From positions 60,069 through 80,068 of the forward strand of contig PS015295.1 of assembly GCA_048213135.1 (NCBI GenBank): a stretch of 20,000 bases of DNA, written 5' to 3'. This stretch comes from Reclinomonas americana ATCC 50394. Lineage: Eukaryota. Shown piece by piece: positions 1 to 19,800 of this stretch. The notes under the pieces are model-generated. The model was given only the letters and a program-made list of their open reading frames with translations, was not told where the DNA came from and searched no databases. The position numbers and the translations under genes were made by a program. Position 1 is the stretch's first letter. Every line of letters starts with the position of its first letter.

Positions 1-3000
1 CGGCTTCGATGCGACTGGTGGGTGAGTTCGCAGCGGTACGCCAATGTCTGGTTGGATCACGATGGATCGTTGGCTGGCTGGATCCAACGTTAGCGCTTGT
101 GCCTTGGGTCGGCGCACGCTGTCAGGTGCACGAGGAGATGACGACACTGGCGCCTGGTCGAGGGAAATGTGACGGTGTTGGCTGCGGGAGGAGAGCTGTT
201 GCAGCGAGCCTCGTTGTTGCGACTTGTCTTGTTGCTGTTGCTGGTCCTGTAGCCGTCGGAGGGAGCCAATCTCCTGCTGCCGCTGACGCGGTGAGGCTTG
301 TGGCGTAGCCAGTGGCGCCGGCTGCTCATCCGCTGGTGTCGAAGGCGGATGCACAGGCTGATCCTGCGATTGCCGCACTTCCGATGGCATCTGAGCAGCT
401 GCCTCGTCGCCAGGAGCCGCGTCGCCCTGTTGATGCTGACCGTGCTGGTGCTGCTGGCGTTCTTGTTGCTGCTGTTGTTGCTGCTGCTGCTGCTGCTGTT
501 GTGGTTGCTGTTGCTGCGGCTGTTGCTGCTGTTGTTGTTGTTGCTCCTGCTGCTGCTGCTGCTTCTGCTCTTGATGTGCTGACTGACCTATGCCGTCTGG
601 CGACGATGATTGGCTCGGGTGCGGTTGGAGGAGCTGCTCCAGAAGCGGGTCCGACGGCGACTGTGGGTATGCTGTGACTGCTGACGGCTGTTGTTGTTCC
701 TGCTGTTTATGTTCGCGCTGCAGTTGTTCCTTCGGTTCCAGTGGGTCCAGAATTGAGTGGATGCGGGACGACGCAGCCGGCGCAGTGTTTTGCTCCACAG
801 CAGCCGTCGTTCCGGCCGAGTCGTCCGCTGTTGACGCGAGTGTCGATGGTTCCTCACGCCGTGCAGAGGCCTGCTCCGGTGTTGCAGTCCGTCTACTTCC
901 TCCTCTGCCAGACGCAGGCCCAACGTCCAGCGCATTCGACGAGCTCTTGTGCAACACGAAGCTTGCACGCGGCGACACCGTTGATGAAATCGAACCACCG
1001 CGACTTGCTCGTCGGTGCAGTCGACCGCCGGTCGGTGTCGTTGCGGCGGCGAGGGAGCCACGTCGTGCATCGCCGTCGCCTTCCAGCTGCTTCAGGTCAC
1101 TGGCACCGTCGCTGCTCGCCAGCCGTCTCGCCTCGCGTCCATCGCCTGCTTCGTCACCGTAGCCGTCATCGTCTTGCCTTGCCGCAATGCTCACGCGCCT
1201 GTTGCGTCCAGGATGCGTCAAGGCCACTGACCGCCTGCGCAATTGCACAAACTGCTGCTGCGAGAGTGACGAGCGGCGGCGAATCAGTTTGCGGGATGAA
1301 GCTGCTGGGGTTCCACCGGCAATGTACGCCAGCGCAGCGTCGAGAGCACGAGTGATCTTGTCCACCACCTCGGGATTGGAGCCGTGTTTCTCAGTCGCCG
1401 TCTTTTGCCAGTATTTCTGTACACGCGCAGTCCACACATAGTGAGTGCACGGTAGCATGTTGCCTCTTTCCAGCTCCAGTGGCAGCATACCAGCATTGAG
1501 GCGACATTCTGGACGTTGACGGTGCGCATTGTTGACTGTGGTTTGTGAAACGAACAAGTCAGTCTGTGAACACCACTTCTGTCGCACTGCATGGTGCTGC
1601 ATACCAGCAGTTCGTGCAGGCCAGTGGCGAGCTCCGACACCTCATCAGTCGCCAGTTCGGACACTGCAGGCTGCTCACTGTGTGTGTGTTTGTGTTCCCC
1701 GTCCGCACGTCAGCAACAACTCTTGCCACAACAACGGAGGGTCAACAACACAACACACGTACCGGAGAGCATTGCTCTTCGCCAACAGGTCACCACACAG
1801 TCCGAGAAGGCGGGAGCTGTCGCCCATGACTGGTGCGAGAGTCTCGCGTGCCGCGGCGAGCATGGCGGTGGCACTGTCGTTGCAGTCGGTGACCAGTGTC
1901 CGCCGCTGACCCAATTCTGCTTTCAGTGCCACCAGTTGTTCGTGTGTTCGTGCCAATGCCCCGGCACACTCGACCACCGCCTGCTCCGCCACAGCTCGCG
2001 CCGCAAATGACTCCACCAGCAGGTCGTGCACTTCATCCAGAGTGGCCAACCGAAGCCCGAGACGGTCGGCAATCTCCTGTGCGCGCACCATGGAGTCGCG
2101 CTCCAGAGTCACTTGCAGCAGCCTCGACTCCAGTGTCTTGATATGTGCACTCTGCTGTGCGACCTGCTGCTCGAGTTCAGCATTGCTGGTGCGCAGCGAA
2201 GCACAGCTCTCACAAAGACGAGTCGCGAGAAGTCGGAGTGGCAGAATGCCGTCGGCTTGCACACCACACTCGACGGCGTCGTTCTCGTCGGGCACCTGCA
2301 CTCCGTTGTGCGCAAAGCTGCACGGTCGAGCCGGCAGCTGGTCCGCCTCACTGACTATCTGGTTGAGGGTTTCGTAGGATAGCGGCTGCAACGGGGCACG
2401 ATGTTGTTAAGTCACAAAACCGACCGACTTCTGATATTGATTGGTGAGCGCTCACCTCGTCGGTATCCGGTTGCAGAATCTTGTCTCGCAACCACAGGTA
2501 GCGCTCGCGGCTCTCACGGATACGTAGAGCCATGTCCTCGATGGAGATCATGTACGTGTGCACGGTTACGCGCTGTCCCTCTTGAATTCTGCAGTCACAG
2601 TCAGTACAGTGTATTTGCAGGGAGGGGAAAGAGACTACAGTGTGCACGCACTCGAGTTCCTCACGCCAGCTCTTGACGGGATTGTCGCGTAGCACGATAC
2701 CAGGGACATTCTATTCACACCGCCAGCGATGTATGTGTGTGTGAAGAGAGAGAAAGCTGGCAGTGATTGGCTGGCGCACAGCGGACGAACCAGCGATAGT
2801 CTCCGCCGGTCGCCCACTGGACCATCTTGATGTTGCCTGATCTGTTGAGTGTGTGTGTGTGTGGTGAGACACTGTGCACACACCAGCCCAATTGGCCTCC
2901 TCTCGCTCGCCAAACCTTGTCAATCGCGTTGGTGAATTCGGTCTGCAACTCTCGCATCAGTTGCTCCCGTTCCAGATCGCGTCGTGCGCTGGACTTTTCA

Positions 3001-4338
3001 AACTGCGCGCACGCAAACATGGTTGCCTTCAGCCATGGCAAACCCCCACCACAGGGAAAGAAATAAGGGCAACGCAACCTCGTCCAACAGGCCGCCCAGT
3101 TCAGCCTGCAAGGAGGCATACAGTTGCTGAAAGTGCCTTTCGGTTTCCGCAAACTGCATGCGGTGGCGATCATGTCACAATACATGCACATCATCATCAT
3201 CACCTCCCCGTTATCACTGTGTTCTGAACGTACCGCATCCTTGGTGCTTTGCACCTCTTCCGACGCCAAACGCAGTCGCTGCGTGAGCACGGCAATGGTC
3301 AAGTGCGCATCGTCCAGTTCCTGTTTCCGGGTCTTCCGTTGCGGAGTGGAACCGGCTGGCAGAGAAGCAGCAGCAGCGGCGGAAGTCGCAGCAGCAGTGA
3401 CGATTGTGGGTGTGGCAGTGGTAGCTGTCGCTTGATCCTTTCTGTGTGCCGGCGGTCGACGGCCATCACCGTTGGCAGGAGCCGCGTTTCCGGCACTTGT
3501 CTGCAACTGCAACAGCTGTGGTGTGTTCCGCAGTGCGTCAGTGAAAGGCACCGCGTTCCCTTCGCTCACACGTTGGTACCTTTTCGCGAGCATGCTTCAC
3601 ATTCTCAGCAATGGCGGTGGCCAGGTGATCAATGTGCGTCGAAATCGGCTCCATGAGCGTGATGAATGCCTCCACCGAGTCCGGCATTTGCATCATCTGT
3701 GGCCGCATCAGTGTTGAGTTTCGAGGTTTCGGCTCATCTGGCATGCGCCTTACCTCGTGGAACAGCAGTGGCCGCACGTCAGGCAGCGTCAGCAGTGGTG
3801 GCCGCGGACCGCCGAGTTGATGTGTCGCTCGTGCACACAACTCCAATCGCAACAGCACCTGCACGTGTTCGTGAGCGACACAGACACGTCTCGCAGCGCA
3901 CACACACACACACACAGTGCGTGTGCAGTGGTGCAGAGTACGTACCGCGTCTGTCCACCGCGACAAGAAGAGCGCCATGTGTGAGTACTCAACGTACTCA
4001 CGAACGCGTCGCTCCTCTTCGCATTCTGGTCGATGATACATTCCCCATTGTCGCTGACCGAGTTGCTCGACGGTGCGCTGCATCTTGGCCACCTGCGCCG
4101 CCTCGATCGCACCATCAGGCTCGTCGCCCACACTCGGAACGGTGTGCGCCCACGCCTTGGCTGACACTGAGGGGTGTTTGCTGGCGCCAGCGACGCACGC
4201 GCGGTAGCTGGCCACCACCTGACTGTACAGACTGCTGTTCTCCTCGGCATCAGTCGACGACGACGACGATGGCACTGGCTGCGAGTCGGTTGCGACCGAT
4301 GGCACGGCTGCGGCCACACCCACATCCGACACGGACAT
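1..4338 (-). CDS. Large coiled-coil, low-complexity/poly-Q protein of unknown family; ~12 introns; 3' end outside window
   Basis: ATG at 4338 (MSVSDVGV...). GT-AG introns (e.g. 3003-3078 and donors near 2916, 2790, 2651, 2455, 1762, 1604, 1490) join ORF-track fragments into one frame with heptad segments (NAELEQQVAQQSAHIKTLESRLLQVTLERD). The last exon is open from ~1416 to base 1 (KYWQKTATEKHG...poly-Q...VASKP) and is missing from the ORF track because it has no stop in the window. Confidence 0.75.
465..570 (-). repeat. CAG/CAA trinucleotide tract encoding poly-glutamine
   Basis: (TGC/TGT)n on the + strand, in frame as Gln codons in the last visible exon of the coiled-coil gene. Confidence 0.9.
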
Positions 4339-4408
4339 GCGTTTTCTCGCGATAATGAGAAAAAACGGTCGGCCGAGTTAATATTTACAGTAGGTCCTAA
4401 TGCAATTT

Positions 4409-6768
4409 TCACTCCCGATCATTAGCACTCTCCGCATGGTTGTCTTCCGCTTGCTCCGCTGCCGCCGGCTCCGGCTCCGACTCTGGCACCGGCAAGGCGA
4501 TCCCGTCTATCGATTTGGCGGCAGCCACCATCGTCTCGGGCAATATGGTGGTGATCACCGATACGATCGAGTTGCGCAAGTCAAAAAAGTCGTAACGCAC
4601 CAATGCGGGTAATTGCTGCGTGACAACTCGAACGGGCTCGGCCAGGAACAGATCCCGCTGGTTGGCGTAGGCCGCGTACGCATACAATCGTGAGGGGTCC
4701 TGGATGCTGGCCTGCTCGAGAGCCGCCATGGTGCTCCTCGTTAGATTCGAGTCGGAAAGCACCACGAGCACAAATACGGGGGCGCGAATCTGCACGGTGA
4801 GTGAGACGCAAGGCATGACTTTTGAGGAGCGGAAGTGAGCGATAATGAGTGGTGGGTGTGCACGCAACAGAGTCGCGGACAATATCCATCATCTCCCGAT
4901 TGAACTGTGGTGCAATCGGCAGCTGATGGTTGTGAATCCAGTTGCCGAGTTGCGTCTGTGGAATCACCACCACCACGTGATCAGAGTAACACAACAAGGA
5001 GAGGGCTGCAATCGCGGTGGTGGTGGTATGCGCAACTGGATCGGCAAGTGCACCCGCACAGTAAAAGTGCTCTCGATTACGATTGAGCAACAGTGTGCCG
5101 GCGTGCTTGCAATGCTTGGCCTCCTCTCGCACCTCGCCCTGTAGCCGCGCAACGCCTCGCAGCGACTGAATACGGAAGAACTGGACCGTCTCGCGCGTGG
5201 CAAATGCAAGAGAAGCATCGCGCAGGGCCACCTACGCGTGTCGTCGTCGACGATGAGTGAGCTCACAGACACAAGAAGTCGTTTCTTGATTCGCGTACAC
5301 TCACCGCCGATGCCGAATCCGCCTTGGGCGCCGTCATGATTACCACAGCCTCGTTGTGGTCCAACGGCAGCTCATTGATGCTCTCCGCTGTGGTGAAGGG
5401 CACGGGGGAGAAGGCGGAGACCACGAACTGAATGATGTGCAGCAGGTTGCGTTGTCCACTGTAGGCCGACAGCACACCGTGCGCTCGCCTGCGATCGAGA
5501 GAGGAAAAGGGGAAAGAACGCGGCGTGGTCTTGAGAAAGGAGAGGACAAGTGCACAGCAACAAAATCACAAGCACTGGGGAGCGCACCAGGCGAGATGCG
5601 GCACAGCGGCCAGCTGGAGGGAGATGCACTTTTGTCGCATGTTGCCGTTGCATTCAAAGGCGCCAAACTTGACCGACAGGTGCATGTTGGCCACATCAGC
5701 AGCCGCACTAGAGAAGACGTGCATCATCTTTTCACACGGCGGCGAGTGCTGCACAAAGCTGCGTGGCCGTTTAGTCCGTCCATCAGCTAACATACCGCAG
5801 CGAGTGCCAACAGACAACTGCACGCAACAAGAGGATGAACCACGTGCCGGTCTGCGTGAGGCGCTCAAAGTCTCGTATGCTACTGAATGTGGTCACCAGC
5901 GTCGCGTGCGAGCTTCCTCGCAGTCCTCTCGCGCGCTCCTCCTCACTTTCCTCCCAGCTCTCGTCCTCCCCTTCGTCATCTTCGTCTCCTCTCTCCTCTT
6001 CTCCCCTTGCATCGACTCCTGGCACAGCAGCGGGTGCTGCCGTCTCTCCCTGCTGCTGCTGCTGCTGCTGCGGCTGCTCCGGAGGCGGTGAAGTCGCCAG
6101 CAATGCATGCAGATCCTCAGCCGACGCAGGCGATGTGGTCACCGCCTCATTCTCGTGGCTTGCAGGCGCCTGGCGCAGCATGAGCAGTCAGTCGGCCCGC
6201 CTCAGTCATGTTTTTGTCTTCTCCCACTCGCTGCTGCACTCACCTCGTGCTCTGTCGCCGACGATGCAGTTTCTGTACTTGACAAGGCTGCGGCGGCCTC
6301 CTTGTCGACCCGCGAAGCATCTGCAGCCGGCACTGGCGGCACACTTGACTTGGTGCTCACACGTGTTGGTGTGTAGCTGGAGACAGACGAGCGACGGCCA
6401 CCACGCGAAGGCCACGCAATCTGCCCGCGAGGACCGAATCGCGGCTTATTGAATGGATCATCCAGCGGCACACCGCCGTTGCCGGCAGGTGGCAGCTGTG
6501 AGGAGGAGGATACACCCACTGGCTTGCCCAACAGCGAGGGGTAGTTGTGCGCCACAAATGCAGTGGACAACACGCCCGCCACAGTCAGGCCCAACACACA
6601 CAACACCACCATTCCAAATGTCACACGACCGCGACGAGCGGCCGATGCGAGGCTCTCTCTCTCGTCCTCACTGTCGCTCTCGTGCTCGAGCGCATGTCCC
6701 CGCGGCGCAGAGTGTGGCAGTGTCGGACCACCACCACCACCACCACCACCACGAGGAGCGCCCTTCAT
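4409..6768 (-). CDS. Type II membrane-anchored protein disulfide isomerase-like protein (thioredoxin a domain with SxxC, then probable b/b' domains); ~6 introns
   Basis: ATG 6768. One hydrophobic segment (VTFGMVVLCVLGLTVAGVLSTAFVA), then a low-complexity acidic stalk. Spliced WFILFFVQHSPPCEKMMHVFSSAAADV...VKFGAFEC...KC...VPHLAW...YSGQRNLLHIIQFV matches the PDI pattern WLVEFYAPWCGHC...YxGxR. LGNWIHNHQLP resembles the b-b' linker. Stop TGA at 4409-4411. Confidence 0.72.
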
Positions 6769-6792
6769 TGCGCTCTTCTCAATCTATTAGAA

Positions 6793-6808
6793 TTTTGCGC
6801 GGGAAAAA
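6793..6808. promoter_or_regulatory. E2F-consensus-like element (TTTCCCGC on - strand, overlapping TTTTGCGCG on + strand)
   Basis: GCGGGAAA at 6799-6806 matches TTTSSCGC and lies ~30 bp upstream of the ATG at 6768 in a 122-bp spacer. Motif match only. Confidence 0.3.
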
Positions 6809-6890
6809 TCGCGTGTCCTCTGACTCCTCCCGCGGCGACGTTACGTTATCGAGCTCCGTTCTGCAAGTGCGTCTCGTCGCAGTTTACTAT

Positions 6891-9099
<2,209 letters not shown>

Positions 9100-9146
9100 T
9101 CTCTCGGGCTCAGTGAGAGGGAGACGTCCTATCACGTCCTTTGCTC

Positions 9147-10265
9147 ATGATGCTTCGTGTTGCGCGACGAGCGTCGTCGCCTTTGCTGTCGCGATCGGTG
9201 GCGACAGCAGTGGTGAGTGATGTGTGGTGGCGTCGAGCGTTGGCGCCTGCGCAGGGGCAGGGCGGCGGTGAGGTGGTGATTCGGCGAGCGCGAGTGCGCG
9301 ATGTGTCAGAGTTGGTGCGCATGTACACGCACATGTGGGTGCATCACAACCCGGTGATCCAGGCGCTGCAGATCACGGAGAGCGATCTGCAACCGATGAC
9401 CTCCATGGGTGAGCGTCAATGCGTGTGGGAGCTTGCCTGCATGCATCGATCGATCGCTCATACGATCATGGTGTGTTGTGTCAGAGGTCCAAACGGCGAT
9501 CAAGAGTGGACTGGCGATGGTGGTGGAGCAGCAGCGAGTGGCGCACGCATCAAAGGTAGCTGCATTGTGCGATGCGACTGGCGACCACGACGACAACGAG
9601 AGTGACGCCTTTCGTGGATGCAGGTCGTCGGTTTCATGATTGGCGAAGACATGGTGCCGGACAAGTTTGAGGTCTCCCATCCGTACCGGCAGCTGGTGGA
9701 TGCCAATCCGAAGCTGCGTCGTCGTCTGGCGTTTTGGAGGGACATTGAGGAGCCGTGGATAAGGTGAACGCAACAAGAGAAAGTTGACACCGTGGTATCG
9801 CCATTGCTCATTCGCATCTGTGCAGCAAAGTAAAGGCGGCTGGCGACTGGCGGCCTGGTGTGACACTGCGGACGTTGGCCGGTGGCGTGCTGCCAGAAGT
9901 AAACGGCCTCGGCATCACCACTGACATGCTGAGACTGGCGGCAGAGGTACGCACGGATGTGTGTTGGGCGTGCGACTTGTCTCTCTCTCACGCACACAAC
10001 CTGTGGCGATGCAGTGGTGCCGCCAACACGAGTATCGGTACATGACAGATCTGGCGTCGAATGCAGCGTCAGCACGCGTGGCAGAAAAGTGCGGCATGGT
10101 CGAGGTGAATCGCGTGGTGTGGTCTGGTGAGTCCGCACATCCTCGCGTCGCAATGGTGCTCGCACAACTCATGCACGCCGCACAGACTGGGTGTTCGAGG
10201 ACGGAACGCGGCCGTACGATCAGTACCCGGGCCATGCGTTACTGTACGTGCAGACACTACGATAG
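9147..10265 (+). CDS. GNAT-family N-acetyltransferase (arylalkylamine N-acetyltransferase-like architecture), possible mitochondrial presequence; 5 introns
   Basis: Spliced product: VVIRRARVRDVSELVRM (beta1/alpha1), KVVGFMIGED (beta3), GGVLPEVNGLGITTDML (acetyl-CoA motif A), ASNAASARVAEKCGM (motif B), DWVFEDGTRPY. Stop TAG 10263-10265. N-terminus MMLRVARRASSPLLSRSVATA is Arg/Ser-rich and lacks acidic residues. Confidence 0.8.
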
Positions 10266-10296
10266 AGAATGGAGGAGAGTAGATTGTACATATCAT

Positions 10297-11465
10297 TTAC
10301 GGCGACACGGGCACTCTGTCGTGGTTCGGTGCCTCCGGAAGCGTCGCCTGTCGATCGCGGATCGATCTGGCTGTGCTCTGCGGTGCGTGCAGCGTGATGG
10401 GGTCCGCTGCTCGTGTCGCTGCCGCCGCTGCCAGTTCTGCTTTGCGGCGGACCGCCGTCTCAAAGGTCGACGCGACGCGCTGATGCGACACCAGCTGGAG
10501 GAAGATGAGTGGCTGCGGGCACGAGCAGCAGCACAGCGCTGGAGCGCAGCACCACCACAGCTGCTGGCGGAAACTGCACAGGGGACGCGCCTGGTCAGTG
10601 GCCAATGTCACACATGAAACTTGCTTCCTGTCATGCCATGGCATCACCTGGGCACGTGATAGGCCGCCGTCGTGTTGCTGTCGACAAACGAGGGACAGCA
10701 GGCGTCGAAGAATGGGCACACTGAATTGTTTGTACCGCAGCAGCGAGTGCGGATTCGAACTCGACTGCAGCGGACGATGAGTGAGGACAGGAGGAGAGAA
10801 GACCGCGGATGGATGCATGCTCACCGCCAGTGCACACCCATGGGGTGAAAGACGCCCTCGTTCCACTCATCCAGCACCTGCTGCACGCGGGCAAATGTAC
10901 TCGGAGCGCCACGCAAGCAGGCGCCACACCAACCAATGCAGCAGCACGCGCGGCAACTCTCGCAATCACGCAGACAGTCACAAGAACGAGCACCAGTGTA
11001 GTCGAGTCGTGAACGCACACGCAGTGCCTCGGCCGCACCCTCGACGGCCTCCAGGAACACCGAGGCGATGGCACGCGGATCGACAGCAGCCGCCGGTGAT
11101 GCTGTTGTTGCAGCAGTGCGACGCCACCCATCACTGTTCGACTGCATGATCAGTGGTCGGCCGCGCAGCACGCGCGCCAGAAACTCCACATCACGGTGCC
11201 TGTCTCACAAGCCGGTGAGAAGCTACAGGTGGAGGATGTAGCGCACGCACGCACTGACGCACCCGTACTCTGCTTTGCGCCACTCGTGCGTATCGCGGAA
11301 ACTCCCAAAACTGTCGGCCTCCCGAATCGTCGTCACCATGCGATGCGCCCATGGCCTCCGTGGCTTGTCGGCACGACCCACGGCCGAGTGACCGACATCG
11401 TTGAGACGCGCCACCTCAGCCTCAGCGGAGCAATCCACTCCACAGCAGCAGTGTGTGAGTGACAT
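10297..11465 (-). CDS. Cysteine-rich protein with a possible Erf4/GOLGA7/CHIC-type domain; ~3 introns
   Basis: ATG 11465 (MSLTHCCCGVDC). Introns with donors at ~11263 and ~10824 join to ...CRACCCIGWCGACL...ARVQQVLDEWNEGVFHPMGVHWR, which resembles the LxxxNxxxFxPxGLxW segment of Erf4/CHIC proteins. The last intron donor (~10654) is uncertain. Stop TAA 10297-10299. Confidence 0.55.
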
Positions 11466-11545
11466 TGCGACAACAACCCAAAACTGTAGACCAGCAGCTG
11501 CGATTCAAGATTTGTCCACACACGATTTACACAACAACACAAGTC

Positions 11546-12916
11546 TCACAAGTTTGGAAACAGGGAGATGATACCGCGCCGCTGCTCCAGTACACGGTAG
11601 CCTCCAGGTGGCGAGCGAACCTGCTCAATTCGCTGCAGCTGGTATCGCAGCAGCGTCGACTGGTGAATGAGTCTCTCCGTCAGTCTCTCATCGTACTCTG
11701 GCAGCGGATCCAGTGGTCGCAGCAACTCTGCAGGCAGAGGAGGGAAAGCAAATGAGATTCCTGGTGTGTGCGAATATTGACTGTGTGCGCGCACACGAAC
11801 CCGCGTGTGTCGCTGACGATACTTGTTGTTGTTGTTGTCGTTCGCGGTGCTTCCGGCGCACTCGCGATGAGCAGTGTTCTTCCATGTACTTGCGTCGCTG
11901 GAGGGTGGAGGTAGCCGGCATGCTTGCACTGTGAAGAGAGAGCTCGTGCGGTCAGCAACGGAGCTGTGCAGGGAGATGTATGACAGCAGCATGGAGATCA
12001 CGCAACGCGATAAACTCCTTCAGCGGATCGGCGCAGACACTGGAACCGGATCCAGAAGATACTGACGATGTGTCTGTGGTCGTCCTTGTGGAAACCGACG
12101 ATGAACTGGCACCACTGGAGCCGATGCTTGCAGTGCTGCGAGTGCCACCACCAAAGTGAACGAAGCTGTCTTTGTTCTCCTGTGCATGCTCGTCGTCATC
12201 ATCATCATCGTCAGTCCACCGCTGCTGCTTGGCCAGCTGCTTGAGTTCCTTGTGTCGCGCTCGCAGGTCTCGTGTCAAATGCGCCGAGTTCAACAACAAG
12301 TCTGGCGACGACCAGACAGAGAGAGCGTAAGGCGCAAGAAGAGCAGCAACAGCAGGCGTGTGTATGAACCATCAAAGTACGCCAGCGCAGCAATGTACGC
12401 CGTCTCCGCTCTCCCCAGTGCACTGCGCAACTCGCCTTGACACTGCCAACGACGCGTCAGCGCAAAACTACGCGACTCATGTTCACCCTCTTCATGTGGC
12501 ACCACTCAACTTGCAACAGGCGGCGATGATAAAACACCTGAGTGTCCTCCGGTAGTCTCTGCAGCTCCTGGAACCCCGCATCCAGCGCACGCAACAGCTG
12601 CTCGTGCTGCTCGGCGACCACAACAGGGATGAGGACACGAGAAAGAGAGAGAGAGATGGAGACGAGTTTGCCTCACCCGTGTCAGAAACACACTCCAGTC
12701 TGTCTGGATCTTGCCACCAAGGTCCGTCTTCTTGCTCTGTGGGCGTGTGAACGTGTGGATAAGCAAAACAGCACACGCCTTCTCTGTTGTTATCATGCGC
12801 GCAACTCCTCCACTCTCCACATGAAACGACACCCACGAGGAGAAGTACACCAGCCGCTCCACATGCCGCTCACACAGCTCCACCAGCTCACGCACTCGTG
12901 TCAGCGCATCCGACAT
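11546..12916 (-). CDS. Hypothetical protein: helical N-terminus, acidic/Ser-rich middle; several introns
   Basis: ATG 12916 (MSDALTRVRELVELCERHVERL). Exon fragments IQTDWSVFLTR/LLRALDAGFQELQ, AETAYIAALAYFD, DDDDDDDEH, FPPLPAELLRPLDPLPEYDERL...IISLFPNL*. Some junctions are unresolved and no family was recognised. Confidence 0.55.
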
Positions 12917-13015
12917 GCTCTTCTCTCGCCAGACACACACAAATCACAACGTTCTTGCAACCGTCAGCCTCGTCCTGCAGCTGTTCGTCGGAACATTGGC
13001 GCGGGCTTTGTGGCA

Positions 13016-15861
13016 ATGTGCGGAGGCAAGCGCGATCCGGTTCGTGTGCAGACAGAGAGAGCGAGACAGACAGACAAAGTGCAGAACATGCACGCTCATT
13101 CCGACAGGGCGCACAAGTGCCGATGCACATGCTCGTCTTTGCACACACACTGTTCTCCCCCTTTCCCTGCGCATCTCACATGCACACATGTGCATCTTAT
13201 GCTCTCTCCCTCTCTCTGTATGCGCGCGCTAATGTGTGTGACAGGAGCGATCGCTGCTGATTCGCAACCAAGTGGCCACCTTCTTCCTCGGTGCCATCAA
13301 CAACCTCACCTACGTGGTCGTCATTAGTGGCGCGCAGAACATTGTCAACACCTTCAATGTGCCCAACCTGATCGGGTCAGTGATGCATTCTCATTCACAT
13401 TTGCGTCGATCTCTCTCAAGATAAAAAGCAGACTGATTCCACTGGCCAACATTGCGCTTGGTCTCGTGGCCAAGTTCGTCAACACACTGTTCATGGAGAA
13501 GGTGTCGTACTCGCTGCGCATGTTCTTTGGCGGCTTTTTGTCGATTGCCGGCTGCGTTCTGGTCGCCTTCTCGCCGCACATGAACTTCCCGGTCGCTCTC
13601 ATTGGCATTCTTCTCATTGGTGCATTCTCCGCGTTCTGCGAGAGGTTTGCAGCTCTTCTTGTGCGGCGCTGCGAGGGGTTAGGTGGGATGCGTGCTGAAG
13701 TGGAGTTGCTGCGCAGTGTCTTCCTCGGCTACCTCAGCCTGTTTCCGCCGGCGTTGGTCGGTGGCTGGTCGAGTGGAACGGGTCTCGCTGGCGTCTTTGG
13801 CTCGGCGTACTATCTGCTGCTCAGTTGCGTCACACAAGGGGAGCAGTCGGTCGGTCATGCCGGTTTTTGCTCACGCTGCCGTGCATCACAATGCAGATGC
13901 GGCCGGTCTCAGCGACATGTGGATCTTCCTGTCGCAAGTGCCCTTTATCTTTGTGTATTGGATACTGTACTTTTTCGTGCTCTCCAAGCCGCAAGATCGA
14001 TATCACGCGTTGCCGAATGGTCCGCCGGCAGTGACCGATGCGGAGGGTGTCACCAGTTGCGTCGATGGGGAGTGGAGATGCCGTGTTTCTAGTCTCTGTC
14101 ATTCTCTTTTTCGAATCTCGGGTCTAATTTGTTGCTTGTGCGTGACTGCTCGCTCACCGCGTCGCCGTGTCTTTCCAGTAGCTTACGGGTCTGTGGAGCC
14201 ACGCAAGGACGAGCAGCACGTGCAGGAGGAGAAGGCTGGCTCTCCGAAAGACGAGGAGAGCATGCAGCTGGTGGACGGCGGAAAGCCGGCTGGTGAGGCG
14301 ACGGAACTGCAGCCTCCAACGCGCGCCGTGGTGGGGTGGACCGATATTAAGTTGGCCATGAGGCTTGTGTGGTGGTACTCGCTGCAGGTGAGTGACATTA
14401 GAGGGAGAGGGAGAGGGAGAGGGAGAGGGAGAGGGAGAGGGAGAGGGAGAGGGAGGGGGAGAGGGAAAGAGAAGGAGAGAGAGGGAGATTTAGAGGGAGG
14501 GAGATTGNNNNNNNNNNNNNNNNNNNNNNNNNNNNNNNNNNNNNNNNNNNNNNNNNNNNNNNNNNNNNNNNNNNNNNNNNNNNNNNNNNNNNNNNNNNNN
14601 NNNNNNNNNNNNNNNNNNNNNNNNNNNNNNNNNNNNNNNNNNNNNNNNNNNNNNNNNNNNNNNNNNNNNNNNNNNNNNNNNNNNNNNNNNNNNNNNNNNN
14701 NNNNNNNNNNNNNNNNNNNNNNNNNNNNNNNNNNNNNNNNNNNNNNNNNNNNNNNNNNNNNNNNNNNNNNNNNNNNNNNNNNNNNNNNNNNNNNNNNNNN
14801 NNNNNNNNNNNNNNNNNNNNNNNNNNNNNNNNNNNNNNNNNNNNNNNNNNNNNNNNNNNNNNNNNNNNNNNNNNNNNNNNNNNNNNNNNNNNNNNNNNNN
14901 NNNNNNNNNNNNNNNNNNNNNNNNNNNNNNNNNNNNNNNNNNNNNNNNNNNNNNNNNNNNNNNNNNNNNNNNNNNNNNNNNNNNNNNNNNNNNNNNNNNN
15001 NNNNNNNNNNNNNNNNNNNNNNNNNNNNNNNNNNNNNNNNNNNNNNNNNNNNNNNNNNNNNNNNNNNNNNNNNNNNNNNNNNNNNNNNNNNNNNNNNNNN
15101 NNNNNNNNNNNNGAGAGAGGGAGAGGACAGGTCGAGAGTAGAGAGAGAGAAGATGGAGAAGGAGGGAGAGAGAGAATGCAAGAAGTGTGTGTATGTGCGT
15201 GAGAGAGAGGATGGAGAAGGGCCCGAGACAGAGAGATTTAGAAGCAAAGTTGGGGATGGAGAGAAAACAAGAAGAGAGAGGGAGGGAGATCAGAGACTTC
15301 TATTATTCTTGGGTTGCTAACACAGGGGGAAAACAGCTCGGCCTGGTGTACTTTTTCGAGTACGTGGTCAGCGTGGGTGCTGCCGACAAGGCGAACCCGT
15401 CCACCGACGTCGGTTCATGGGAACGACAGCACGCATACACCATTTTGTCATTCTGCTACCAGTCCGGTGTACTGCTGTCGCGCTCATCGCTGCCGTTCTT
15501 CAAGATCAAGCGTGTCGACATTCTCACCATACTACAAGGCGCCAACTTTGTGTTCTGGATCATTTTGGCCAAGGTGCGTGTGTGCATAGATGTGCGTGTC
15601 GTGTGCGCCGCTGTTCTCACTCGTTGCGCGACCGTGCAGTACAAGTTTGTCAACGTGTGGGTCCAGTTCGTGCTCATGGTGTACGTGGGTCTCCTCGGCG
15701 GCGCCTCGTACGTCAACTGCTTCCACTTGGTGCTAAAGGATCCGAAGATCGACTTGCGGATACGAGATCTGGCCATGAACGTGTGCTCGTTCGTCTGCAA
15801 CGTAGGCATCCTCACGGCGTCGCTCTGGGACATTTTTATGGATCACACATTCCTGCAGTAG
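13016..15861 (+). CDS. CLN3: Battenin / CLN3 (BTN1) family lysosomal MFS-like transporter; ~7 introns
   Basis: Spliced motifs FFLGAINNLTYVVVISGAQ, GGWSSGTGLAGVFG, QLGLVYFFEY, YQSGVLLSRSS, GLLGGASYVNCF are diagnostic of CLN3/Btn1. Stop TAG 15859-15861. The first mini-exon MCGGKRDP (13016-13039) is inferred. Confidence 0.93.
14400..15295 (+). repeat. Polypurine (GGGAGA)n / GA-rich tract spanning a 604-N gap in a CLN3 intron
   Basis: About 10 GGGAGA-type units from 14400; purine-rich sequence on both sides of the gap at 14508-15111; intron 14388-15336. Confidence 0.9.
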
Positions 15862-15894
15862 TAGTAAGTAAAGAGTTTCGATGGTTGCGTTTAT

Positions 15895-16716
15895 TCAGGG
15901 AGAAGGAGGATTCCTCTGATCCAACTCACTTCGCAGATCGCTAACGATCCTGTTCAGGTGTGCGGATAATTCCTCCTCGCTTGAGAGCAGCGTGAGTTCC
16001 GGTGAATCATCCGGCAGGTTGCATGTGTGGCTGCAGATGGACACCAGCTCGTAGCTCCTGCGTTCGCACTTGAACTGCGTCTCCCGCTCCACAGGCGCCG
16101 CCTCGACCACCCACGTTTCGGCGGCAGAGGGGAATGGCTCGACGACAATCCACAGCCGTCCATTATTCGCACGCGTCACTTCGTCGACGCGCCAGAACTC
16201 GTCCAGCTGGTACAAGAAGCTCCTGAACAATTCAGCGTTCACCTCCAGGGCAGGATCGGCAGGCTGTCGGTTGTACGTCAGCTTCTGATGGTTTGTTGAA
16301 GGGATGCTGACAGCTGCGACGCACCTCGTCCAACAGCCAGACAAGATTCTCACGATCAAAGTGCGGCATCTCCCTGTGGGAGCGGAGCTGCATCGCCACC
16401 GTGCCTCTCTCGTCGATGACGTAGAAGCACACAAACTTGGTCACCTCGCCCGCGTCACTGAAGAGCGGAAATTGCATCTGCGGCAACGCTGGAATGAGAC
16501 TTGCTGTGATCGCCTTGCATCAACACAGCAGCATGGCTCTCCACGAACCGTGTGCATCAGCGCCCACAACTCAAGCCTGGTCCAGGGACGCGAAATGGCG
16601 AAACGGCAATACCTATCGACGTCGGGTAGCGAACACGCTGGCGGAGGCTCGGCGACATGCTCGCACAGCCACGCACGAAGCGCGCCATCATTCACCGCGT
16701 TGCCTTCTCGCGACAT
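15895..16716 (-). CDS. Hypothetical globular protein; ~2 introns
   Basis: ATG 16716 (MSREGNAVNDGALRAWLCEHV). Exon LPQMQFPLF...FVCFYVIDERG...LVWLLDE, intron (donor ~16324), then PADPALEVNAELFRSFLYQLDEFW...RNPPSP*. The stop TGA overlaps AATAAA. First intron boundaries are ambiguous. Confidence 0.6.
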
Positions 16717-16816
16717 TGTGTAAAAAACTTCGACGTCGACGTCGAGGCAAATCGGACACGAAGTCGACGACGTCGACCGTTTCGGTGATCTCAAACTGCG
16801 TCACACAGAGCCAACC
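16717..16816. promoter_or_regulatory. Probable bidirectional promoter with CGACGTCG/GTCGAC palindromes
   Basis: 100-bp spacer between divergent ATGs (16716 - and 16817 +). Perfect 16-bp palindrome TCGACGTCGACGTCGA at 16730-16745, plus GTCGACGACGTCGAC at 16763-16777. Confidence 0.5.
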
Positions 16817-19800
16817 ATGTCGCTGGCCGCACCCTCCAGCAACCTGGTGCTCTCCCAGAACTGCCTCACACTTCCACGGTTTGCGATCACACTCACTCTC
16901 ACACTCTCACTCTGACTCTCAGTCAGACATGGGACCAACGCGTGCTCTCTCTCTCTCTCAATNNNNNNNNNNNNNNNNNNNNNNNNNNNNNNNNNNNNNN
17001 NNNNNNNNNNNNNNNNNNNNNNNNNNNNNNNNNNNNNNNNNNNNNNNNNNNNNNNNNNNNNNNNNNNNNNNNNNNNNNNNNNNNNNNNNNNNNNNNNNNN
17101 NNNNNNNNNNNNNNNNNNNNNNNNNNNNNNNNNNNNNNNNNNNNNNNNNCTTCATCAGCGTGCACGTCGTGACGGGAAGTTTGTACAGTCGCGTATGCGA
17201 GCGCTGCAGCAGCAGTTGTTGGAGGAGCAGGAGCAGGAACAGGAGGAGAGGGGAGTGCAGTGGGCGGATCCACCGGCGTCCTCGTATGGAGGCGTGGCGG
17301 CGTCGAGTGAGGCCGATCCGGGCGCAGAGTTTGACGATCCGTTTCTCATGCAGCTGGAGCAGATGCGGCTGGCGCAGGCGGAGCGGCTGCGCGAGTTGGA
17401 GGAGCGCATGTATGGTCGACCGGTGATGCAGGATATGATGGCGGGCAATGGGAACGGCAATGGTGGTAATGTGGTCCGTGGAGAGCCGGAGTATGAGCTG
17501 GAGTCGGATCGGTGGAATGCGTTGCATCGGCGAGTGGGAGCGCGACGTGCCGACGCACTGCAAAAGCCGACCCGGCATGCGTGGCAGGAGGCGCGTATCA
17601 ACGACGGCGATCTGTTTGCGGATGAGTTGCCGAGTTTCGTCTTCCGTCGATGCGCGATGTCGTGTCGTATTTTTGCTGACCGATCATTCAGTCACGGTGC
17701 CGGTCGATGGCGGACAGCGTCGTGTTGCCGACAGCATGGTCTGTGGGGTGCGACTGTTCTCCGTGGAGGAGTTCACGCGCGTCGAGCTCACACTATATTT
17801 CTTCGTGACAGGACTCGGATGCCGGTGGCGAGAATCCGCTGTTCATGTCCACCATTCGCTCCATCAGTGGCATTGGTGGTCCGTCGAAGACGCGTCACGA
17901 TGATGGGACGGCGTTTGTGGATTACGACGATGAGTTGTCGCCACGGCCACGGTCACCATCGCGTCTGCCCAGACCATTGGCCCGACAAGTGGCCACTGCG
18001 GGCACCAATACCGGCGCCGGGACCGGTGGCAGTGGATCGGCGGCATCGTCGGGCACTCCATCGGCGCGCGAACTGATTCGACTCGCCGACGAAGAGGTGC
18101 AGCGTGATCCACTGGACAGGGCACCTCCGCCACCACGGTGGCAATCCAGCAAGGCCGACATGGACTTTGATGACACGGAGTCACCGCCAGTGGTGGCGCC
18201 GTCGGGTCCACGCTGGCAGAGCAGTGCCGTCGGTGGACAGCCAACTCGACACGCGGTGGGTGGCGGACGTGCCGCCGCTGTGGAGTCTGTGTTCCCGTCC
18301 TCGTCGGACGGAGGCGTCGACGGAGACGATCTCGTCAAGCCACGCGCTGCATCGGTGCCACCGCGATGGCAGAGTGCCGCCGAGGCCGATGTGAGTGGCG
18401 TGTGGAACAACAATACTCTCTTTTTTCGTCGTCATGTCACTCATTTCCTCTTCCCCATGATGCAGGACATGTTGGTGGAGGATTTCGAAGCGGCGACAGC
18501 GGGTGAAGACAACGCCTTTCAAGTTCCACGCTTGTCGGGTCGTACGAGCACGCAGCCCGAGTCGCAAGCCAGTGGACCGCTGCCGCCCCGGTCATCCTCC
18601 GCAACACGCTCCGGTGCCGCGAGTCCTTCACCGCTGCGGTCGGCCTCGCGACCCAGTGAGGGTACGGCGAGCGAGGGCGAGGGTGCTGCCAGTGGCGGTG
18701 ATGGGCACTACTACGGCGAGCACGACATGGCGGTGGAGGCGCGAGCTGCCGCTCGCAAGCGGCGCATCACCAAGTCGAACAAGAAGACCGAGGCAGCACC
18801 GTTTTCGTTCCACAGCCGTGCCGAGGAGAAGAAGGCCACCAAGACCATTGCGCAGCGCAAGTTTGAGGAGATGATGAAGGTGCGTACTCCGTGGGGAAAG
18901 AATAATGATTGGCGTGTGCTGATGCACTGACTGGATGGAACAGGAGCGAGAAAAGGAGTTGATGGGCAAACGGCAATTCAAGGCCAAGGACATTCCCGAT
19001 GCCGTGAAGAAGCCGCTGTTTGAGACAATCCTCAAGCGCAACACCGAGAGGAGAGAGGAGGCGAAGAGGAAGAGCATGGATTTGCTGAAGGAGCGCGAGG
19101 CCCCATTCACATTTTACGAGCGCGACGTGGCCAAGATGCGCGAGAGGAAGGCCATGGCGGAGCGCGAGCCGACACCCCCGCCACCAGTGGTGTACAAGGC
19201 CACGCCGATTCCCCCCGAGATCTCCGCGCCCATTTTCCGTCAGCAAGAGATGAAGGAGGAGGAGCGCAAGGCGCGCATCAACATTCGGGCCCAGAAGCTG
19301 CTGGAGAAGGCCAAGCTGCCGCCACGCATGGAAATGCACATGGCGCAGGGTGAGGGTGGTAGCGAGAAAGGTCAGGGCGAGCAGGGTGAACAGGACGGAT
19401 CGCGTCGTCAGTCGGATTATCCTCGTTGCGTGTTTTTTGTTGACATGTGCGATGTGAGCTTCTGTCGCTGTTGTCTGACTGTGCGCGCGCCCCACATGCA
19501 GCACCGTACACGTTCAAGCCGCAGATCAACACCAAGGTGCCGAACCACCAGCTCCTGCAATCGCGTTTCGAGGCCGCGCTTGAACGCGCTCGCGTCAGCA
19601 AGCAGCCGACCAAGCCGCAAGAGTTCCGTTTGGCCTCCTCGTCGGCGGGCACCGCAAGCCCCGCTCGATCCGCCAGAAGAGAAGTCAAGCCCGAGCCACC
19701 GGTGAGCTCTTTGGAAGGCGCGCTCATTGCTTTGTTTGTGTGTGCTCACTCTTGCGTGTCGCGTCAGCCCAAGCCCGTGGTCAGACCGCGACCAGCATAC

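Follow-up and report, generated by a model that had tools for sequence, protein, structure and literature searches.

A candidate second class of 5' splice sites, displaced by one base, in a 20-kb stretch of the Reclinomonas americana genome

Genes and modeled introns of the window

The DNA considered here is a 20,000-nucleotide stretch from Reclinomonas americana ATCC 50394 (assembly GCA_048213135.1, contig PS015295.1, positions 60,069 to 80,068 of the forward strand), referred to below as the window and numbered from its first base. With a G+C content of 59% and 812 N, the window is densely filled by eukaryotic genes with short introns. Some of these introns appear to begin with the hexamer GTTGCG, and it is these candidate 5' splice sites (5'ss), together with the way in which the U1 small nuclear RNA (U1 snRNA) may recognize them, that are the subject of this analysis. 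Nine genes were placed by reading all reading frames and testing hand-made models for open frames, and all of the junctions discussed were deduced from the sequence and from homology.

Gene A, which encodes a coiled-coil protein on the minus strand, starts with an ATG at 4338 and extends beyond base 1. On the same strand, gene B (6768 to 4409) and PIP5K (9099 to 6894) give complete open frames of 627 and 497 amino acids (aa) after splicing, and gene D (12916 to 11546) also gives an open frame when spliced, with a rough model only for the adjacent gene D2 (~11465 to 10300). Gene C occupies 9147-10265 on the plus strand. The plus-strand gene CLN3/battenin (13245-15861), for which the 5' end was not found, is open throughout its modeled part, as is FAM161 (16817 to past 20000, plus strand), which is interrupted by an N gap; gene F (~16715 to 15895, minus strand) lies between them. 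Three of the genes have clear family assignments, with homologs of PIP5K bearing PF01504 (best E=2.7e-55), the PF02487 profile matching four exons of CLN3, and FAM161 matching the Pfam family FAM161A_B (PF10595, E=4.7e-29). The best relatives of PIP5K are only 45-46% identical to it, and those of CLN3 are 60-73% identical over one exon and come from diverse eukaryotes.

The catalog of introns used below contains 50 hand-modeled introns, 13 of the GTTGCG class and 37 with ordinary donors. Four rough introns of gene D2, the first FAM161 intron, which adjoins the N gap, and a 48-nt stretch of gene C that may be an intron are kept outside it. GTTGCG is the most frequent donor hexamer in the catalog with 13 occurrences, followed by GTGCGT with six, GTGAGT with five, and GTACGT with three. 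The class accounts for 13 of 50 introns (26%), or for 10 of 45 confident introns (22%) in a strict count that demands T at +7 and leaves out introns that are ambiguous because they are in frame. An initial annotation, made from the sequence alone, had listed 12 such introns and put their share at about a fifth, which the strict count bears out for this 20-kb window only. All 12 of its GTTGCG hexamers are present at the donor positions and on the strands that it gave, each opening a segment that runs from GT to AG with C or T before the AG; 11 continue with T, 10 lack an exonic G at -1, and five read CA^GTTGCG, where the caret marks the exon-intron boundary.

The GTTGCG donors and their introns

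Ordinary donors in the catalog read (A/G)AG^GT(G/A)(C/A)G(T/C), with G at -1 in 33 of the 37, A at -2 in 20, G at +3 in 20, C at +4 in 15, G at +5 in 30, T at +6 in 21, and G at +7 in 16. The 13 class donors all have T at +3, G at +4, C at +5, and G at +6, with T at +7 in 11 and G at +8 in eight, so that +3 to +6 are 100% conserved, compared with 41-81% at the equivalent positions of ordinary donors. The two groups also differ on the exon side. An exonic G at -1 precedes only 2/13 class donors vs 33/37 ordinary donors (Fisher p=2.3e-6), and the contrast persists in the strict subsets (2/10 vs 31/35, p=8e-5), in agreement with the earlier claim that the class is anticorrelated with -1 G and that ordinary donors mostly follow a G. 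Exons that precede class donors end in A at -1 in 6/13 cases, have C at -2 in 7/13, and end in CA in 5/13, with the frequency of A at -1 being similar to that of A at -2 before ordinary donors (20/37, p=0.75). Read one base over, CA^GTTGCGTG is identical to CAG^GTGCGTG except at one position, where T replaces the ordinary +1 G, and the cut lies one base upstream. The initial description of the class as the local GTGCGT donor plus one extra T therefore captures it well: the consensus block is displaced by +1, and T occupies both +2 and +3.

In other respects the class introns resemble their neighbors. All 13 run from GT to AG, 12 of the 13 are 69-81 nt long, and their lengths and acceptors are like those of ordinary introns. 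A branch-like CTNAY, scored as a motif match only, occurs within the last 45 nt in 11/13 class and 29/37 ordinary introns, mostly at -16 to -32 in both. These similar lengths, branch-like motifs, and acceptors make it likely that the same type of spliceosome removes both groups. One rival reading is that the class belongs to an altered minor spliceosome of the U12 kind, whose rigid donor is independent of the exon. The rigid donor of 7-8 nt and its lack of dependence on -1 G do recall U12-type donors, which have the consensus RTATCCTT and belong to introns with the branch site near the 3' end. However, GTTGCGT has no likeness to that consensus, branch-like motifs are of the same kind and lie at the same distances as in ordinary introns, and a frequency of ~25% is far beyond that of any usual minor class, and we can give this explanation hardly any credence.

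The tight lengths raise another possibility, that a single insertion process or mobile element brings TTGCGT into genes and borrows a G from the host, which would make the donor a relic of the birth of the intron. Introner elements of Micromonas and Aureococcus create many short introns of similar length with a common terminal motif, and the class introns share the short, uniform length and the terminal motif with them. A single substitution in an ordinary donor would also seem unable to yield the class without a frameshift, and an inserted T would keep the -1 G, which hints at a separate origin. In contrast to introners, however, the class introns show no similarity beyond their first eight bases: the mean local alignment score is 8.15 for pairs of class introns, 8.24 for pairs across the two classes, and 7.69 for pairs of other introns, and there are no shared 3' ends. 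Because the intron bodies lack similarity, the class is not a recent introner family. Ordinary introns are equally long, and the spliceosome must still read the site whatever its origin, and we consider an introner-like origin highly improbable. Overall, the sequence features suggest that the class behaves as a donor read in a shifted or bulged register, and they fit neither a U12-type nor an introner class.

The motif itself is enriched in the window. Counting both strands, there are 33 copies of GTTGCG vs 19.7±4.0 in 200 dinucleotide shuffles, none of which reaches 33, and 17 copies of GTTGCGT vs 4.5±2.3, with 0/200 shuffles reaching 17. The ordinary GTGCGT shows no such enrichment (29 vs 24.8, with 45/200 shuffles reaching 29). 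The 17 copies of GTTGCGT consist of 11 inferred donors, one sense exonic copy (12589-12595), one sense copy just 3' of the CLN3 stop codon (15884), and four antisense copies. Among the 13 on the sense strand, 11 are placed exactly at frame breaks that need a donor, with (C/T)AG following 69-123 nt on, at a chance density for GTTGCG of ~5e-4 per base per strand. The 20 copies of GTTGCG that are not donors equal the shuffle expectation, so that the whole excess corresponds to the donors. Five of the seven unused sense-strand copies of GTTGCG have C at +7, making GTTGCGC the commonest unused sense form, and both GTTGCGC candidates among the introns are ambiguous because they are in frame; the secure motif is therefore GTTGCGT. 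In a metagenome scan that returned 12 loci, all ≤63% identical, only one locus (L002, 785-11302, on a contig of 58% G+C) is rich in GTTGCGT, with six copies. It belongs to a distant organism and carries a distant CLN3 (38% identity) that is nearly intron-free there and in which the one GTTGCGT copy is exonic.

Two of the class junctions are residue-exact. In PIP5K, the intron 7552..7625 (minus strand, 74 nt, gct^GTTGCGTC...CGTAG) joins ...IELDCA^LLEVCNIMDYSLL..., which is gap-free against the 14 PIP5K homologs shown of 28 aligned; the DCA junction is thereby fixed as first proposed, and shifting both boundaries by ±1 base leaves no GT-AG. In CLN3, removal of 13824..13896 (plus strand, 73 nt, tca^GTTGCGTC...ATGCAG) gives a local length equal to that of 5 of the 15 homologs shown (24 aligned), most others having one residue more, and the exon preceding it follows the Pfam CLN3 profile (positions 103-136) up to the exon's final residue. 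For eight further class introns retention leads to a frameshift or a stop codon, which with the two fixed by homology makes 10/13.

On the minus strand, intron 3003..3078 of gene A (76 nt, gag^GTTGCGTT...GCGCAG) would, if retained, meet a stop 26 codons on, and it is picked exactly by gene finders that are blind to the donor sequence beyond GT. In gene B, 4790..4868 (79 nt, tct^GTTGCGTG...GTGCAG), with branch-like CTCAC at -16 and -12, is required for the 627-aa frame, which its retention shifts, and 5759..5828 (70 nt, ctt^GTTGCGTG...ACGCAG), which lies in a thioredoxin-like motif, must be removed to keep the frame, with retention meeting a stop after 15 codons. PIP5K contains three further class introns. 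For the first, 7329..7397 (69 nt, gca^GTTGCGTG...CTGCAG), the initial annotation had chosen a 3' end at 7349, which puts the conserved C terminus of PIP5K out of frame; only the acceptor at 7329 restores it. The second, 8697..8769 (73 nt, tca^GTTGCGTG...ATGCAG), is required by the frame and lies ~8 residues upstream of a conserved block, and is not residue-exact. The third, 9025..9095 (71 nt), would immediately follow a first exon with only four coding nucleotides, ATGG. By way of this exon PIP5K would start with MGVNHS, since no ATG lies in frame in exon 2 ahead of the kinase domain, and the MGxxxS N terminus resembles a myristoylation signal. In gene D, the length of 11929..12006 (78 nt, cgc^GTTGCGTG...TTCACAG; CTGAC at -27) is in frame, yet a stop codon occurs 18 codons in.

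On the plus strand, retention of the FAM161 intron 19425..19501 (77 nt, ctc^GTTGCGTG...ATGCAG) shifts the frame. The initial annotation considered its DYP junction to be fixed, and the frame does support the junction, but residue-exact placement does not hold: the flanking exons match FAM161A_B positions 41-181 and 191-237, with ~18 residues spanning profile positions 181 to 191, so that the junction falls in a loop between two Pfam blocks and is fixed by frame only.

The remaining three are candidate introns, being multiples of three without an in-frame stop that may be retained. They are 4956..5036 in gene B (minus strand, 81 nt, cca^GTTGCGCA...CCACAG), which has C at +7; 12737..12805 in gene D (minus strand, 69 nt, gga^GTTGCGCG...CCACAG), a GTTGCGC candidate that was absent from the initial annotation, is the 13th of the class, and was chosen by a donor-blind finder; and 14056..14178 in a variable loop of CLN3 (plus strand, 123 nt, CTCAC at -26), where homology is uninformative. 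In-frame codon scoring gives -0.08, -0.28, and -0.60 for them, in that order, relative to means of +0.35±0.30 for exons and -0.38±0.26 for introns, and to -0.06 for the homology-proven in-frame intron 8374-8445. By this score 12737-12805 and 14056-14178 look like introns, and 4956-5036 is intermediate.

Frame alone is weak evidence in G+C-rich DNA and does not fix most of the junctions; the argument is carried by the repeated occurrence of one heptamer. A partial independent check comes from the donor-blind gene finders, which are too noisy for full models. Given GT only, they pick 5/13 class donors (3078, 12805, 13824, 14056, and 19425), each paired with the 3' end of the hand model in at least one run, although one run instead placed the end of the 14056 intron at 14181. 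When the codon table was derived only from exons that do not touch class introns, GTTGCG was the top hexamer, in 4/38 calls. It could be argued that the class is an artefact of gene modeling, with many of the segments being coding or spliced at other donors and the excess of the hexamer having another cause. Such an argument can draw on the three in-frame, stop-free segments, on the many frame-compatible alternatives, and on the existence of exonic GTTGCG, for example at 2487, 3848, 5148, 12426, and 12590. It has to contend with two residue-exact junctions, with the exact coincidence of 11/13 sense GTTGCGT with frame breaks, and with the donor-blind picks, and we judge it improbable. From the sequence, the sites are very probably real donors.

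Three other accounts of the displaced block were considered and rejected. A reading with both boundaries one base to the right (AG^TT...AGN^) is opposed by the base after AG, which is G in only 2/13 introns and does not covary. A homopolymer sequencing error would not remove the -1 G, and GTGCGT donors coexist with the class. Pairing of the donor with the 3' end of the intron, judged by eye, is inconsistent across introns.

Possible recognition of the class by U1

In human cells, a shifted register has been described in which all 5'ss/U1 base pairs move by one position and the cut stays at GU (Roca and Krainer 2009, as cited in the available text of PMC4856993). The same text puts all validated noncanonical registers together at ~1.5% of human 5'ss. 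The mammalian precedent for shifted or bulged registers that the initial annotation invoked is thus described there for human cells, and the geometry of the class is that of the shifted register. As far as the available text goes, the mammalian shifted-register sites share with the class cleavage at GU followed by U at +3, a block displaced by one base, and no need for the -1 G. They differ in being rare and in having AAGU as the block, whereas 11-13 of the 50 introns modeled here use GCGU and are known from sequence alone.

We favor a model in which the class introns are genuine GT-AG introns of the major spliceosome that carry a discrete second donor class, (C)A^GTTGCGT(G), read by U1 shifted by one nucleotide, and we assign this reading a probability of roughly 0.5. 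In this model, U1 snRNA would pair with class sites one nucleotide displaced. The intronic G+1 would take the pairing place of the exonic -1 G, U+2 would be mismatched, +3 to +8 (UGCGUG) would pair in the way that +2 to +7 of an ordinary donor do, and an exonic CA could add two pairs. The cut would still be set at GU, in the later steps that involve U6, U5, and Prp8. With one pair lost, a site would be expected to function only if the rest of its block is perfect, and we propose that the need to compensate for the lost pair accounts for the lack of variation at +3 to +6 and for the dispensability of the exonic -1 G. The displaced UGCGU would be a strong pairing partner for a U1 with G opposite +4 (of the ACGUAC type), and a U1 of this kind would explain why the displaced donors are of the GCG form only.

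The same sites could instead be read by the same U1 in a bulged register, with G+1 and U+2 paired, one U (+2 or +3) bulged, and GCGU paired like ordinary +3 to +6. In human cells, bulges at +2/+3 are a validated register and outnumber the shifted one, according to the available text of PMC4856993, and like the sites discussed there (Roca et al. 2012; Tan et al. 2016) the class has an extra intronic nucleotide between GU and a block of the +5 G type. The GTTTGC donors at 13645 and 16877 in the window keep the -1 G and could represent a two-base version of such a bulge. Pairs were counted with the published U1 motifs ACUUAC and ACGUAC, and at the 8/13 class sites with an exon that does not end in CA, the numbers of pairs in the bulged and shifted registers would be similar. 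However, a bulge retains the pair with -1 G and predicts ordinary usage of that base, in contrast to the 2/13 vs 33/37 observed, and the CA excess (5/13) is not predicted by it. The loss of -1 G and the excess of CA therefore favor a shifted over a bulged register, albeit in small numbers, and we regard bulging as unlikely.

A third possibility is that a dedicated variant U1 (or U6), with a 5' end fully complementary to CAGUUGCGU, for example through one base changed opposite +1 G, reads the class, and that standard U1 serves the other introns. Once aligned by their blocks, the two consensuses differ at a single position, so that a one-base variant of U1 would suffice and would account for the class just as well, and the class is discrete, with no intermediates except one GTTTCGT. 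There is also precedent in other lineages: in the available text of bioRxiv 10.1101/2022.06.08.495308, lineage-specific U1 5' ends are reported to have co-evolved with donors in Entamoeba and Mastigamoeba, and Physarum is mentioned as having a mixture of standard and modified U1 genes. However, nothing within the window calls for a second U1, and we consider a dedicated variant distinctly unlikely.

The same source, in the parts available, describes GUUUGU donors with a U1 of ACAAAC in Entamoeba and GUGCGC donors with a U1 of ACGUAC in Mastigamoeba. It places +4 C donors in the GC-rich lineages Mastigamoeba, Thecamonas, and Mamiellales, with G opposite +4 in the Mastigamoeba U1. The window resembles these systems in its GC-rich composition with a preference for +4 C and in its tolerance of +3 U donors, and they illustrate that U1 5' ends can change along with donors. 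In those genomes, however, one consensus has shifted over nearly all introns, whereas here two discrete classes occur within the same genes. A GUUGCG class is not mentioned in the available parts of that preprint or of the Mastigamoeba genome paper (PMC8136499). A full-text literature search for GTTGCG, GTTGCGT, or GUUGCG with intron or splice, which does not cover figure logos or supplements, gave only primers and unrelated items among the matches listed. Relative to the known noncanonical-register cases, the class is abundant where those are rare and discrete where those are scattered.

Several observations weigh against the shifted-register model or the data behind it. An Rfam scan of the window gave no match of any kind, and thus no U1, U6, or other snRNA gene, leaving the register purely inferred. 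The catalog was made by hand and was partly led by the list in the initial annotation, so that curator bias affects both the frequencies given for the class and its contrast at -1 G. Only 2/13 class junctions are fixed by homology, 3/13 segments could be retained coding sequence, and at the four sites examined there are 6 to 28 other frame-keeping GT/GC-AG pairs within ±45 nt. A full GTTGCGTG is present unused inside an exon of gene D (GTTGCGT at 12589-12595, minus strand), for which no frame-compatible acceptor was found when the frames were read by eye rather than by script. CAG precedes only 2/37 ordinary donors, compared with CA before 5/13 class donors, so that the exonic preference of the class is not a simple one-base translation of the ordinary one. 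The displaced forms GTTGAG and GTTACG are absent from the 50-intron catalog, and the shift model must assume perfect pairing to account for this.

With these points in mind, the broader form of the shifted-register model is offered more tentatively, at somewhat less than even odds: two donor codes may coexist in the same genes, an exon-anchored AG^GTRNGT and an intron-anchored, exon-independent A^GTTGCGTG that is one base out of register, with the second serving a fifth to a quarter of introns genome-wide and possibly using a U1 with G opposite +4 or a second U1 variant. If genome-wide data confirm it, a mechanism that mammals use only rarely would here have a new variant, and an abundant one. 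Noncanonical U1 registers are known almost solely from human minigene work, and R. americana would be the first organism with shifted-register recognition as a routine mode of splicing. It would offer a natural system for studying how U1, U6, and U5 decouple site recognition from the choice of the cut, would reveal the trade-off between exon-side and intron-side contacts, and would shed light on the origin of such sites, to which no single substitution leads without a frameshift. There is also a practical consequence for annotation. Gene finders trained on GTRNGT would mis-model about every fourth intron in this genome, and with class introns in 6/9 genes here, this would result in frameshifted or truncated proteins for about half of the genes.

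Other unusual donors and features of the window

Including the GTTGCG class, 18/50 modeled donors have T at +3, a share that seems far above that of most eukaryotes. The others comprise GTTTGC (13645 and 16877, plus strand), GTTTCGT (17634, plus strand), and GTTCGT and GTTCAT (11800 and 12369, minus strand). The CLN3 intron 13645..13716 (plus strand, 72 nt) has the donor gag^GTTTGCAG (GAG^GTTTGC) and is placed exactly, since the Pfam profile is continuous across it (the exon ends at ~100 and the next starts at ~102) and the alignment with homologs is gap-free. The donor AAG^GTCTGT of the PIP5K intron 8374-8445 is validated by the same homolog alignment as the class junction in that gene. Two further candidates named by the initial annotation are less secure. 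For A^GTTTCGT near 17635 in FAM161 (17634..17691, plus strand, 58 nt, cga^GTTTCGTC), a two-intron model with a 56-nt exon has an open frame and branch-like motifs, but a single 173-nt intron from GTCTTC is an alternative. T^GTGAAG near 3600 is in frame, but so is its rival AAG^GTACCA at 3579.

Gene B had been labeled a thioredoxin, and here the label finds no backing from a Pfam thioredoxin match or from a solved thioredoxin fold: with exons queried singly, four exons gave no Pfam match and there was no PDB match, and two exon queries found no homolog among 5.8 billion proteins. The ESM Atlas language-model neighbors of a 56-aa exon are all thioredoxin clusters (0.77-0.85), which we take as a lead only. 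The thioredoxin-like motif (5590-5757, minus strand) has SPPC where CxxC is expected. The protein also contains long acidic and Q-rich spacers, and a membrane segment is predicted at its N terminus.

Several introns are unusual in length or content. The PIP5K intron 7764-7989 (minus strand) consists almost entirely of a (GT/CA) microsatellite of ~150 nt plus a 20-N assembly gap, and its donor GTGTGT belongs to the microsatellite itself. In CLN3, the intron 14388-15336 (plus strand), with an acceptor at 15336 that is fixed by homology, is 949 nt long, compared with a norm of 40-125 nt, and is filled by GAGAGG-type repeats and a 605-N gap. The gene F intron 16285-16324 (minus strand, GTGCGT...ATCAG) is needed for the frame and is unusually short at 40 nt, with no branch-like motif. 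In gene A, the segment 2711-2915 (minus strand) is ambiguous and could be a single 205-nt intron from AAG^GTTTGG or two introns around a small exon, which in one frame reads GNIKMVQWATGGDYRW; the frame is kept there by 308 two-intron and five single-intron solutions. The C-terminal part of the same gene (1-700, minus strand) encodes a long glutamine-rich, low-complexity tract from CAG/CAA repeats.

Genes in the window are tightly spaced. The stops of CLN3 and gene F lie tail to tail, 34 nt apart (15861-15895), ~70 nt separate the gene B stop from the gene A start (4338-4409), and ~80 nt separate the gene D stop from the following ATG (11465-11546). With such spacing, untranslated regions must be minimal or overlapping. 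PIP5K (minus strand, 9099) and gene C (plus strand, 9147) start head to head, just 47 nt apart.

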